From: Thermoanaerobaculia bacterium
GTDB lineage: Bacteria; Acidobacteriota; Thermoanaerobaculia; Multivoradales; Multivoraceae
Assembly: GCA_963664405.1 (NCBI GenBank)
Contig: OY761158.1
Location: forward strand, 4,804,556-4,868,555
Reading direction: 5' to 3'
Length of the DNA stretch: 64,000 nt
Positions 7,143-14,547 of the stretch are shown here, in pieces; the first letter of the stretch is position 1, and each line of letters starts with the position of its first letter. The notes beneath the pieces were generated by a model, which was not told the origin of the DNA, searched no databases, and saw only the letters and a program-made list of their open reading frames with translations. The position numbers and the translations under genes were made by a program.

Positions 7143-10100
7143 ATGGCCATCGAACGGCCCGCTTCCCACCTCCCAAGAGCACCTGTAACTGAAGAGTCTA
7201 GTAGAGCTATGACCCACCCCATCCACCGGCGCTACTACGCGGAGGACCTTGTCCGCCGCCGCCGCGCCGGTGAGGCCCGGCGGTATGCCTCGTCGCAGCG
7301 TCAAGGCCGGATCGATGCAAACCCCCACCAGATCGACGCTGTCATGTTCGCGCTGGGTCGGATTCCTGACGGCGGGTGCATCCTTGCCGATGAGGTCGGT
7401 CTCGGAAAGACCATCGAAGCAGGGCTCGTGATGGCGCAGATGTTGTCGGAAGGGGCCGAGAGGATTCTCCTAGTGCTTCCTCGCGCCCTGCTCGGCCAGT
7501 GGCAGGATGAGCTCTACACGTTGTTTGGCATGACGGCGATCGAGGCCGACGCCAACGACGCAGACCTCAACGCACCGGGAGTTTTTCTCGCGGGACGCGA
7601 ATGGGCAGGAACTGAGAGGGGCTCGAGCAAGCTCACCAGTGGGCCCCCATTTGACCTCGTGATCATCGATGAGGCCCACGAGGTTTTCGCGGGCATCTAC
7701 CGGCGCTTCGATCGGCATGGGGCGTATCGAGCCGACAGCCCGTATGCGATGACCGCCCACCGCGTCCAGCTCCTCATCGGGCCCTCCCCTGTGCTCCTTC
7801 TCACCGCGACCCCCATGCAGAACTCGCTCAACGAGCTGTGGGGCCTGGTGCAATACATCGACCGCACCAACACCCTGCTCGGGCACCAGCCCACCTTCAA
7901 GGCGCTCTTCTGCGAAGACCCAAGCGGCCGGCGCATCGTGCCGGAGCAGTCTCTCGAGCTTCAACGCCGGCTCGGCTCCGTGGTGCAGCGAACCCTCCGC
8001 CGCCAGGCGCAGGAATTTCTCGACAAGCCCTTCGTCCATCGACAGACCAAGCTCTTCGAGTACACCATGACCCCAGAAGAGCGTGCGCTCTACGACGACG
8101 TCACCGCCTACCTGCTCGAGCCGACTCTGTTCGCGTTCCGCGGCCGCTCGCGGCAGCTCCTCCTCATCGGTTTCCATCGCCGCATGGCCTCGTCGACGGC
8201 GGCCCTCGCACAGAGCCTCGAACAAGTCGCCAAGCGTCTGCGTGGGATTCTCAAAGGAGTCGCGGAGGCCGATCTGCCCGACATCCGTTTCGAATTCCTT
8301 GCCGACCTCGAAGACGAGCTCGACGTCCCCGAGTCTGAGGACGTCGAAGTCGAGCCCCAGCCCGAAGGCGTGAGAGCCGAGCTGGCGCGTGTCGAGGACT
8401 TCGTGCGCCGAGCCCAGGACCTTCCCCACGACAGCAAGGCGGAAAGCCTCGTCCAGGCAGTCCGAGCACTCGGCGAACGCGAGGAAGGTAGCGACAAGGT
8501 GGTGATCTTCACCGAGTCCCTGGTAACGCAGCAGTTCCTCCGCACTCTGCTGATCGACAAAGCTGGGCTCAGCGACGAGGACATCACTCTCTTCAGCGGC
8601 ACCAACGAGACTCCTCGTGCTCGCGAAGCTCTCGAGCAATGGCAAGAGGATGTGGGCAAGAACCTCGCTCCTCATGCTAAGCCCAGCAAGAAGGTCGCGA
8701 TTCGCCTGGCGCTCGTCCACGACTTCAAGACCCGCTCCCGCGTCCTCATCTCGACCGAAGCGGGCGCGAAGGGTCTCAACCTGCAGTTCTGCGACACTAT
8801 CGTCAACTACGACCTGCCCTGGAACCCCCAGCGCATCGAGCAGCGCATCGGCCGCTGCCACCGCTACGGCCAGAAGCACGACGTCACCGTCATCAACTTC
8901 CTGGCATCGGACAACGAGGCCCAGCGCCTCACTTTCGACATCCTCAGCCAGAAACTAGAGCTCTTCGGAGCCGTCCTTGGCATGTCCGACGAAGTACTCC
9001 ACCAGCCCGGAAGCGACGGCAACTCGCAGCTGGGAATGGCGCTCGGGCCCGACTTCGAAAGTCAGCTCAACAAGATCTGGGATCGCGCGCGCTCCGTCGA
9101 GGAGGTCGAAGAAGAGCTGCGCAAGCTGCGCGATTCGATGGACGATCGGCGACGCGAGCTGGAAGAAGTTCACGAGCGGACCGTTGGTCTGATCGAGAGC
9201 CGGCTCGACGAATCGGTACACCAGGTTTTCCGCCGCATCCGCGACGAGCTGCCGGCTACTCTCGCCGAGCTCGACAAGGAGCTCGAGCGGGTCGCGCTCA
9301 GCTACCTCGAAGCCGCCGATGCCCCTCACCAGGTTCGCGAAAGCGGCGAACGGCGCATCATCGAGCTCTGGCGAGATCCTCGGTTGCCCGAACCACTCGC
9401 TTCGGGCCTTACCATCGCTGTGGGCGGCTCCAGCGGCCTCGAGGATCTCGAGCCTCTTCACACCAGCCACCCCTTGATCGAGGCGGCTCTCGCCGAGGCA
9501 CGTGAAGCCGGGTCTGGCAACTTCCGGCTGCGCTTCGAGCTCGGCGAGAATTCCTCGGAGATCCTCCAGCAACGCCGTGGCTCGCGTGGCCGTCTCGCCC
9601 TGACCAAGGTGTCCTATGACGGCTTCGAGCGAGAGGATCGCCTCATCGCGACGGCGATCTTCGAAGACTCTGACGTCCTCCGCCCGGCAGAAGCCGCCCA
9701 TGAGTTCCTCCAGCTCCCCTGCACTGAGCTGCCGGCCTCGGTCCCCGAGTGGTCGCTCACCGCCGAGGAGCTCGACGAAGTCGTTGATGAAGAGGTCTTC
9801 CTCGACCAGTCGGCGGCGGCGCAGCGCGACCAGGCGAGCTTCGAGAAGTCGATCGACCAGCTCGACCAATACATGGAAGATCGCGCCCTCCTGCTACGGC
9901 GCAACCGCGCCGACCTCACCGGGCGCATCGAGACCGCTGAAGCCAAGCGTGACGGCGCGCTCGGCGCCGACGCGCGCAACGACGCAGAAGAGAAGCTCAA
10001 GAAGCTCGAGCTCGAGGCGGAGGAGATCGACGCGTCCCTCGATCGAGTCGCTACTCGCCAAGACCCCGACTACGAGAAATGGAAGAAACACGCCCACACC

Positions 10101-10160
10101 AGGCGCTATCGATCACCCGAGGCCGAGCGCCTTTTCAGCGTTGAGTTCGAGCTCGCGTGA
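7143..10160 (+). CDS. SNF2-family helicase with ~400-aa coiled-coil-rich C-terminal extension (alternative start 7209)
   Basis: ILADEVGLGKTIEAG (motif I), DLVIIDEAH (II), LLLTATPMQNSLNELW (III) and helicase-C STEAGAKGLNLQFCDTIVNYDLPWNPQRIEQRIGRCHRYGQ (V/VI). GTGA overlap with the next gene. Confidence 0.8.
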   Translation: MAIERPASHLPRAPVTEESSRAMTHPIHRRYYAEDLVRRRRAGEARRYASSQRQGRIDANPHQIDAVMFALGRIPDGGCILADEVGLGKTIEAGLVMAQMLSEGAERILLVLPRALLGQWQDELYTLFGMTAIEADANDADLNAPGVFLAGREWAGTERGSSKLTSGPPFDLVIIDEAHEVFAGIYRRFDRHGAYRADSPYAMTAHRVQLLIGPSPVLLLTATPMQNSLNELWGLVQYIDRTNTLLGHQPTFKALFCEDPSGRRIVPEQSLELQRRLGSVVQRTLRRQAQEFLDKPFVHRQTKLFEYTMTPEERALYDDVTAYLLEPTLFAFRGRSRQLLLIGFHRRMASSTAALAQSLEQVAKRLRGILKGVAEADLPDIRFEFLADLEDELDVPESEDVEVEPQPEGVRAELARVEDFVRRAQDLPHDSKAESLVQAVRALGEREEGSDKVVIFTESLVTQQFLRTLLIDKAGLSDEDITLFSGTNETPRAREALEQWQEDVGKNLAPHAKPSKKVAIRLALVHDFKTRSRVLISTEAGAKGLNLQFCDTIVNYDLPWNPQRIEQRIGRCHRYGQKHDVTVINFLASDNEAQRLTFDILSQKLELFGAVLGMSDEVLHQPGSDGNSQLGMALGPDFESQLNKIWDRARSVEEVEEELRKLRDSMDDRRRELEEVHERTVGLIESRLDESVHQVFRRIRDELPATLAELDKELERVALSYLEAADAPHQVRESGERRIIELWRDPRLPEPLASGLTIAVGGSSGLEDLEPLHTSHPLIEAALAEAREAGSGNFRLRFELGENSSEILQQRRGSRGRLALTKVSYDGFEREDRLIATAIFEDSDVLRPAEAAHEFLQLPCTELPASVPEWSLTAEELDEVVDEEVFLDQSAAAQRDQASFEKSIDQLDQYMEDRALLLRRNRADLTGRIETAEAKRDGALGADARNDAEEKLKKLELEAEEIDASLDRVATRQDPDYEKWKKHAHTRRYRSPEAERLFSVEFELA

Positions 10161-14300: not shown

Positions 14301-14547
14301 CCTCGCCGTTGCCCAAGCGGTAAAGAGTGCCCTCGTACTAGATGACCAGCTCGTCCAAAGCGACCCCAAGCGTATGGAGTGGCTGACTGAGCTCATGTAC
14401 AAGTGCGCCGATGACTTCCAGGTAGTCGTGTTCACCTGCCGGCCGGAAGAGTACGAGCTACCGAACCAGACAGCGAGAGCCAACTGGGTGAACCTCGAGA
14501 AAGTCGTGGAAAGAACGCAGCCCTTGCAACTCGAGACATCCGAGTAG
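11314..14547 (+). CDS. SbcC/Rad50-like SMC-family ATPase (YhaN-like), 1077 aa
   Basis: N-terminal Walker A VLYGPNELGKSTLLQAI. ~800 aa of E/K/A/L-rich coiled coil. C-terminal signature/Walker B region LSIGTRDQLATLIRLA...ALVLDDQLV. Confidence 0.75.
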   Translation: MWLRKLHVRSFAGIKEAEVNLEPNLNVLYGPNELGKSTLLQAIRAALLLPHSSARHRPFIDWHDDRPPRVTLTFETEEQRIWRVQKSFGAGADGSSLLEFSRDGLSFSLDCKGREVDGKLRELLSWGAGSPGGSKARAAGWPDTFLSTALLGSQDEVSAILDKGLEGDLDESGKDLIARSLQAIAESPVFRSVLERAQEKVERAYTATGKKSRAKGSPWMGSQERIRLRQESLESIQRLADNSSAAKLEMEKLQELLQQAELEQSEAAGGLQEIETAHSQQEAWVAASRLLAAATEERDRILGLHKAVETTQAEIDQAKSEFSIAEETKKGAEADLLAAQTEHQQARQRILDLESDDVEQKRKIRRQEIEKSVLELEGRQKDAQREVELAKDALAKEREVSELGSRISSLEKQLSEARSLVETARTEIKKERQELSEMTLYEKLRAYQSSSQALTSANKARDNAAELRTQAGAMKDKARTFRSEVAALGLPTDDALRELAALERELEIAEAKVQIELSLLIRPLREIEISIDTGDRPTETRKISSPETFEAQGVLRAQIGDAADIEVSGGNADQRQEAADARLRWERTSAPLFEKFGVSTRVDLESSCRSESEKLVEVERIEGEAANLEARAEGLGHAGSQLEELEAKAETSKRSLELALPEGIALEELESRFEGVEQGELDRQELEDRIATKEEQAQILETKIAVDEGQLESQKEELEAQKRESAEARDKLPDDPQKVFERATYLLGEYEKNLQADSAELEVLDGFAETETAEARVAQDSASKAVETANECARSADSARNAAKQRVDSLEGELRAREAAAEVEDMTASLALVEDREKALADLPESTSQVDEEQLTYARSEVELAKKELDRLRQEFSKQEGALEQVGGQYVDEKTSEAEEALIAATREEQDVELEYASWQLLLETLKEAESEDAVHLGNSLVVPISENMKELTRGRYDKVSLGPKLSGTSVSLDGSDRELDLLSIGTRDQLATLIRLAVAQAVKSALVLDDQLVQSDPKRMEWLTELMYKCADDFQVVVFTCRPEEYELPNQTARANWVNLEKVVERTQPLQLETSE

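Follow-up and report, generated by a model that had tools for sequence, protein, structure and literature searches.

Why would a SNF2-type motor be encoded together with a nuclease and an ATPase of the SbcCD type, and what could three such proteins do in a bacterial cell? This question is raised by a locus in a 64,000-nucleotide stretch of DNA from a Thermoanaerobaculia bacterium (contig OY761158.1, positions 4,804,556 to 4,868,555). We call the whole stretch the window, and positions given without a locus name are positions in it. The locus contains a SNF2-family ATPase gene, a gene for an Mre11/SbcD/SbcF-type metallophosphoesterase and a gene for a hook-less ABC ATPase that resembles Rad50, SbcC and SbcE. 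Our analysis indicates that this trio is very probably one conserved three-protein machine, in which an SbcEF-type DNA clamp and nuclease acts with a dedicated SNF2 translocase. This reading is based on the strict co-occurrence and order of the genes, their conserved coupling, a tail private to the SNF2 protein, invariant catalytic residues, homology to Mre11/SbcD and Rad50, and an SMC-like fold. As its main role we favour, at about even odds, defence against phages or plasmids, in which foreign DNA that enters the cell in linear or replicating form would be destroyed. All three component families are known, as are operons that join a motor to an SbcCD-type pair. What appears to be new is the obligatory pairing with a SNF2 protein, together with its private tail and the apex domain of the ATPase, none of which is in PADLOC v2, in NCBIfam or in the papers searched.

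Three coupled genes that occur together

All three genes lie on the forward strand. The longest open reading frame (ORF) of the first gene spans 7143..10160 and encodes 1005 amino acids (aa). Since homologues align from residue 22–25 and gene callers elsewhere give 983 aa, the ATG at 7209 is more likely to be the start, which places the SNF2 gene at 7209..10160. The phosphoesterase gene starts with GTG and occupies 10157..11314 (385 aa); the ATPase gene occupies 11314..14547 (1077 aa). An earlier note on this DNA had claimed that three large frames are joined here by GTGA and TGATG overlaps. Direct reading of both junctions confirmed this. The SNF2 and phosphoesterase genes overlap by the 4 nt of GTGA at 10157..10160 (gcGTGAcc), and the phosphoesterase stop shares 1 nt with the ATPase start within TGATG at 11312..11316 (ccTGATGtgg).

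We determined whether the SNF2 gene accompanies the pair elsewhere, as the earlier note had asked. A scan with one genome per species gave 18 loci with a full-length phosphoesterase relative of at least 47% identity. In all 18, a full-length SNF2 relative, tail included, is directly upstream, and an ATPase relative lies downstream in every locus except L024. Together with the contexts of ATPase and phosphoesterase homologues, the scan yielded 24 loci besides the window. It turned out that the SNF2 gene directly precedes the full-length phosphoesterase relative in 24/24 and that the ATPase gene follows it in 23/24. In the contexts of the homologues the order is always SNF2, phosphoesterase, ATPase. 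The phosphoesterase gene of L024 is truncated and the ATPase gene is absent, so this locus is a decayed copy. More distant SbcD-like genes (at most 38% identity) never occur with the SNF2 gene. Many SNF2, phosphoesterase and ATPase clusters have equally long longest contigs, which also points toward co-occurrence.

The close spacing recurs as well, in agreement with the proposed co-translation. In 15 of the 24 other loci, a 4-nt overlap of the SNF2 and phosphoesterase genes is available, and nearly all related loci have a gap of −4 to +13 nt between the phosphoesterase and ATPase genes. Thus, the tight coupling of the three genes is not peculiar to this window. Gene positions in the loci were taken from tblastn coordinates and precomputed gene calls; callers based on the longest ORF or on GC3 are unreliable in these high-GC loci. 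A promoter and terminator scan gave nothing informative, and an Rfam scan of the window found no RNA families. Across 20 loci we found neither a LexA box nor any common upstream motif, and the shared 10-mers belong to the coding N-terminus.

The cassette is rare and patchy, and it spans at least five bacterial phyla. The hosts are metagenome-assembled genomes of Gammaproteobacteria, Acidobacteriota, Myxococcota, Verrucomicrobiota and Rokubacteria. Across these phyla the SNF2 protein and the phosphoesterase keep 47–68% identity, and this spread implies horizontal transfer. The ATPase has only 31–44% identity to the protein of the window, and its arms about 20–30%. Two copies, L087 and L088, are on one 8.4-Mb contig. 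L088 is intact; L087 is decayed, with an IS256-family transposase in place of the SNF2 gene and an ATPase cut to 731 aa. The trio was also checked for being a core, syntenic housekeeping locus. This check, like that for the SNF2 gene elsewhere, did not refute the earlier interpretation: the flanks differ in every locus, and the hosts belong to several phyla.

Motor, nuclease and ATPase

The assignment of the three products as SNF2, SbcD-like and SbcC-like proteins held up in Pfam, NCBIfam and predicted structure. The SNF2 protein matches the Pfam families SNF2-rel_dom (8.9e-22) and Helicase_C (5.6e-17). Among curated models, its motor region (aa 54–711) is closest to the NCBIfam model DISARM_DrmD_b (NF038318; 1e-132), with 444 bits against a cutoff of 950; a second DrmD model, NF038317, gave 223 bits against 610. 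The nearest solved structure is RapA. RapA was nevertheless rejected as an identity, with TM-scores of about 0.2 on a medium-confidence model and 131 bits against a cutoff of 576 for the RapA equivalog NF003426. The motifs GLGKT (K89), DEAH (D176–H179) and QRIGRCHRYGQ are invariant across 32 SNF2 homologues (numbering of the 1005-aa frame).

Behind the motor, the SNF2 protein carries a C-terminal tail of about 350 aa (9096..10157, forward strand). In the AlphaFold2 (AF2) model m515e893e60a0, the mean predicted local distance difference test (pLDDT) is 66, and the tail is better defined, with a pLDDT of about 70–90. The model predicts a long helix (aa 630–702 of the 983-aa protein), a beta-rich domain of about 135 aa (aa 707–840; approximately 9327–9728) and a helical hairpin (aa 852–966). 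The earlier note had described a coiled-coil tail of about 400 aa. A C-terminal tail with helices indeed exists; its shorter length and the beta-rich domain between helix and hairpin in the AF2 model mean that it is not a plain coiled coil. When the tail alone was used as a query, 307 matches were obtained among 1.84 billion representatives. Every full-length match is a protein of 925–1027 aa with the tail at its C-terminus, and the tail is therefore private to this SNF2 family. A search of 72,556 plasmids and 50,697 phage genomes gave no match to it.

The phosphoesterase matches Pfam Metallophos at 4.2e-12. With the SbcD model TIGR00619 it scored 74.5 bits, just under the cutoff of 77.65. Its family profile matches Thermotoga maritima Mre11/SbcD at 1e-17 and Escherichia coli SbcD at 3e-11. 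The metal ligands D18, H20, D64, N99, H100, H175, D207 and H209 are invariant in 20 homologues. The C-terminal 146 aa are outside any Pfam match; this region, the SNF2 tail and the ATPase apex gave no Pfam match even at E values up to 10. No model of PADLOC v2.0.0 covers the phosphoesterase.

The ATPase has an SMC/Rad50-type N-terminal P-loop and matches Pfam AAA_27 with 27.7 bits (cutoff 22), a family that we take to be built on the YhaN family. COG-based JGI labels also give 'YhaN' for two homologues. PADLOC v2.0.0 models match the protein at the P-loop only, and with the NCBIfam SbcC/Rad50 models it stays far under the cutoffs. The profile of the ATPase family matches both lobes of Pyrococcus furiosus Rad50. 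In the AF2 model m3191e5652a03 (mean pLDDT 82), the protein has a split ABC head, two helical arms of about 300 aa and a beta-domain at the apex. Smc5/6, MukB, JetC, Rad50 and LmuB were among the Foldseek matches of this model. The apex domain (12859..13017, aa 516–568, forward strand; six strands in the model) stands in place of the zinc hook of Rad50/SbcC, and G516, D534, A551 and G570 of the apex region are conserved among homologues. There is no CxxC anywhere in the ATPase, and the homologue alignment contains no conserved Cys in the arms or apex. The DNA over the arm region has a strong AT skew (0.32 at 12001–14000), presumably a codon bias of a coiled coil rich in Glu, Lys, Ala and Gln and not a replication signal.

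G30, K36, S37, Q154, S984, G986, D1010 and D1011 of the ATPase, which cover Walker A, Q154, the signature and Walker B, are invariant in 44 homologues. Two features of the head deviate from Rad50. The LILDE of P. furiosus Rad50 aligns with VVLDD, so that Walker B ends in the invariant pair D1010–D1011 and not in D-E. The SHD of Rad50, with the H-loop His, aligns with TC(R)P; this replacement (aa 1005–1045 region) is found in the 44 homologues and in the plasmid sister family described below. The D-D Walker B together with the missing His suggests a slow, switch-like ATPase head. If so, the SNF2 protein would be the main energy-consuming motor.

A plasmid relative and the genomic neighbourhood

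Full-length relatives of the phosphoesterase with about 30% identity are present on many plasmids. On pRSMS1 (L093 4701-11740), the order is a TM0106 RecB-like SF1 helicase-nuclease, a phosphoesterase and an 876-aa ATPase, next to WYL, HEPN and DUF3883 genes and a DruE-like helicase. A Bradyrhizobium plasmid (L094 8001-11806) carries a similar cassette with BilD directly upstream. Such sister cassettes lie on conjugative plasmids, in defence-rich stretches. The genes after the motor are annotated as 'DNA repair exonuclease' and 'AAA family ATPase', and neither this cassette nor its phosphoesterase has a PADLOC v2 model. The three-slot order, the tight spacing and the hook-less ATPase are the same as in the trio. 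The differences are the motor, an SF1 helicase fused to a RecB-type nuclease, the plasmid location and an ATPase about 200 aa shorter. The sister ATPases (876–891 aa) contain no CxxC and share the motifs LSxGTQEQ, ILDD and LTCR with the ATPase of the trio. The nuclease-ATPase pair therefore belongs to a clade of its own, which lacks the hook and is found with more than one kind of motor.

The flanks of the trio are unrelated between loci. By raw tally, defence or mobile-element neighbours are present in about half of the loci. A helicase-nuclease gene of the Hhe/PDC-S37 type adjoins the trio in the window and in 4/24 other loci (L002, L005, L012 and L013), in three orientations. Other neighbours are a PLD and SNF2 pair in L005, HmaA/HmaB-like genes in L023, a Ppl-like ATPase in L011 and TrwC/TrwB directly downstream in L013. 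In L088 there are a PIN toxin-antitoxin pair, fragments of restriction genes and insertion sequence (IS) elements nearby. In L003/L004, an element that resembles a satellite or prophage (15189-23240) is inserted just downstream of the trio; it carries an integrase, AlpA and DUF3631 as well as a terminase-like gene. The insertion cuts short a DnaJ-domain gene, of which L002, a locus identical in all other respects, has a longer version.

In the window, the cassette is bounded downstream by IS debris (14586..15146, directly after the ATPase stop), which is outside the system. Judged by eye, the debris includes an 83-aa ORF like the C-terminal end of an IS256/Mutator transposase (14701-14952) and an ORF like an IS6-type N-terminus (14961-15146, reverse strand). 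It is followed by the Hhe-like gene, here a pseudogene (15827..22849, forward strand) with AAA_11, AAA_12 and MTES_1575 domains in Pfam and PADLOC matches to PDC-S37, Hhe and MkoA/C. It is in three pieces, at 15845-17470, at 17500-18720 after a frameshift and at 20561-22834, and the last two are separated by an inserted IS256-family transposase (18946-20145). The pieces map onto an intact orthologue of 1739 aa (L002 432-5651).

The trio shares a region of about 40 kb with BrxD/SngB-like and BrxHI/SngC-like genes, IS21, Macro, DUF488 and DUF222-HNH genes; a Fic gene is a few kb beyond (52691-53785, reverse strand). The Brx-like genes form a convergent pair at 25416-30940: a 1066-aa SAP-domain, BrxD/SngB-like ATPase on the forward strand and a 743-aa BrxHI/SngC/Lhr-like helicase on the reverse strand. 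With no further BREX genes seen in its vicinity, this pair is perhaps a module of the Shango-like or BrxD-BrxH kind. Further genes are a Helicase_C protein (32160-34067, reverse), a Macro-domain protein (35223-36284, reverse), IS21 IstB (39791-40564) with a probable IstA upstream, the DUF488 gene (42352-43239, reverse) and the DUF222-HNH gene (45112-46506).

Role of the trio and comparison with known systems

What might these proteins do together? The core would be a dimer of the Rad50-like ATPase, its long arms joined via the apex beta-domain instead of a zinc hook, with the Mre11-type nuclease bound to it. The SNF2 protein, a double-strand-DNA translocase of the DrmD/RapA-like kind, would be attached to this core, probably by its private C-terminal tail. 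ATP-driven closing of the heads might clamp DNA ends, hairpins or protein-blocked ends, and the phosphoesterase would do the cutting. The SNF2 motor could strip bound proteins off the DNA, or reel the DNA into the nuclease and so keep degradation going. What the sequences show is the order and coupling of the genes, their strict co-occurrence, the intact catalytic motifs, the fold classes, the patchy spread and the variable flanks; the physical complex, its substrate, this division of labour and the possible role in defence are inferred.

Defence is favoured on several grounds: the cassette has a rare and patchy spread, is horizontally transferred and sits in unrelated flanks, often with defence or mobile neighbours; some copies are decayed, the motor resembles DrmD, and the sister cassette is surrounded by defence genes. 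A more specific proposal, to which we give somewhat less than even odds, is that the trio acts on its own against phages or plasmids as a previously unrecognised system, in which a SNF2 translocase drives a sensor-nuclease of the Rad50/Mre11 type without a hook. It would be one branch of an uncatalogued class, a motor plus an SbcEF-like pair, in which the motor is interchangeable. Four points weigh against a defence role. No defence-database model exists for the cassette. Compared with typical defence proteins, the SNF2 protein and the phosphoesterase show unusually high conservation. In L092, L015, L018, L022 and largely L091, the neighbours are metabolic or regulatory only. Finally, among characterised proteins the pair is closest to SbcE/SbcF of Bacillus subtilis, which functions in the repair of double-strand breaks and in competence (PMC2811018).

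The last three of these points would all fit an accessory DNA-repair module, in which an SbcEF-like pair processes ends or hairpins and the SNF2 protein clears bound proteins or remodels stalled forks for resection, in the service of genome maintenance. Helicases in one operon with an SbcCD-type pair also have precedents, namely addB-addA-sbcD-sbcC in L070 and the HerA-NurA-Mre11-Rad50 operon of archaea. We nevertheless consider repair somewhat less likely than defence, since the cassette is very rare and patchy over phyla and not clade-wide, its flanks are never conserved, and it often has mobile or defence genes beside it or has decayed through IS elements. The lack of an SOS box in the 20 loci points the same way, weakly, because LexA motifs differ between phyla. 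The earlier suggestion of an undescribed system of immunity or repair is supported for this uncatalogued, conserved and mobile trio, and of the two we hold immunity to be somewhat more likely.

The trio could also be part of a larger system, with the adjoining Hhe-like helicase-nuclease as a fourth component. This gene adjoins the trio in five places, and an SF1 helicase-nuclease fills the motor slot of the sister cassette. It is improbable as a partner: it is absent from the other 20 loci, it is a pseudogene in the window while the trio is intact, and its variable orientation suits co-location in defence islands better than an operon partnership. Another possibility is that the trio is cargo that serves a mobile element and not the host, through exclusion of competitors, anti-defence or processing of transfer intermediates. 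The TrwC/TrwB genes of L013, the conjugative plasmids of the sister cassette and the IS elements flanking several copies would agree with this. The private tail is missing from the plasmid and phage genomes searched, most loci are chromosomal, and these have no transfer genes within 10 kb, which makes such a role decidedly improbable. That an unrelated SNF2 gene merely came to lie beside an sbcCD-like pair has next to no credibility. All that speaks for it is that SNF2 genes are generally abundant in islands of this kind, and it is refuted by the co-occurrence in the same order in 24/24 loci, the conserved overlaps and the private tail.

Comparison with known systems agrees with the earlier view that the trio matches none of the named ones. 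At the level of a whole system, nothing in PADLOC v2, NCBIfam or Pfam matched. In the published literature we found no description of a trio of SNF2, SbcD-like and SbcC-like genes; the ABC ATPase catalogue of Krishnan et al. 2020 was outside that search. DISARM is similar in its motor, since the SNF2 core of the trio is closest to DrmD. This match is below the cutoffs and limited to the motor region. There are no DrmA, DrmB (DUF1998), DrmC (PLD) or methyltransferase genes nearby, and the cassette recurs without them. We also rejected BREX, Zorya, Hma and Dpd: BrxHII, ZorD, HmaA and DpdE match the motor region only, with scores below DrmD, and their partner genes are not conserved across loci.

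According to one proposal, Lamassu descends from SbcCD and recognises DNA ends (PMC12663957). Both Lamassu and Wadjet sense DNA with an SMC/Rad50-like ATPase, and the ATPase of the trio is related to them in fold, as its Foldseek matches to LmuB and JetC indicate. The LmuB models match only aa 1–93 of the ATPase (1.6e-09), with no LmuA or LmuC match; no Jet models are among the best 25 PADLOC matches listed for each protein, and the link to Wadjet is a fold-level similarity to JetC. In contrast to both systems, the trio lacks LmuA/LmuC and JetA/B/D, keeps an Mre11-type nuclease and adds a SNF2 motor. If the trio is a defence system, it would be the second independent case, beside Lamassu, of SbcCD-type repair machinery recruited to immunity; unlike Lamassu, it would have kept the ancestral nuclease and added a motor of the chromatin-remodeller type. 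It would then offer a simple bacterial model of a SNF2 translocase that cooperates with an Mre11-Rad50-type complex. Such cooperation occurs in eukaryotic end resection, where it is hard to dissect. The interchangeable motor slot suggests a modular design principle, which may guide the search for further systems. If the trio is a repair module, it would still be unusual as a horizontally mobile one.

Among the repair complexes, E. coli SbcCD and Mre11-Rad50 share with the trio the nuclease, a homologue in which every metal-ligand motif is present, as well as the homologous split head of the ABC ATPase and the order of the nuclease and ATPase genes. The trio differs from them in the missing zinc hook, the D-D Walker B, the replaced H-loop His and the obligatory SNF2 partner. 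Coupling of a motor to an end-processing nuclease-ATPase pair is common to the trio, addBA-sbcDC of Bacillaceae and herA-nurA-mre11-rad50 of archaea; there, however, the motors are SF1 AddAB or HerA/FtsK and the operons are clade-wide and housekeeping. The earlier note had compared the pair to yhaO-yhaN, and the AF2 model and the gene order agree with this. B. subtilis SbcE (YhaN) lacks a CxxC and has heptad arms of about 300 aa with a central domain unique to it, and the nuclease SbcF (YhaO) is encoded directly upstream (PMC2811018). The pair of the trio has the same architecture, on which the likeness is judged: an upstream nuclease gene and a hook-less ATPase with arms of about 300 aa and a central domain. 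In contrast, yhaO-yhaN has no SNF2 gene and is followed by yhaM. Gram-positive bacteria have SbcEF clade-wide, whereas the trio is rare and patchy.

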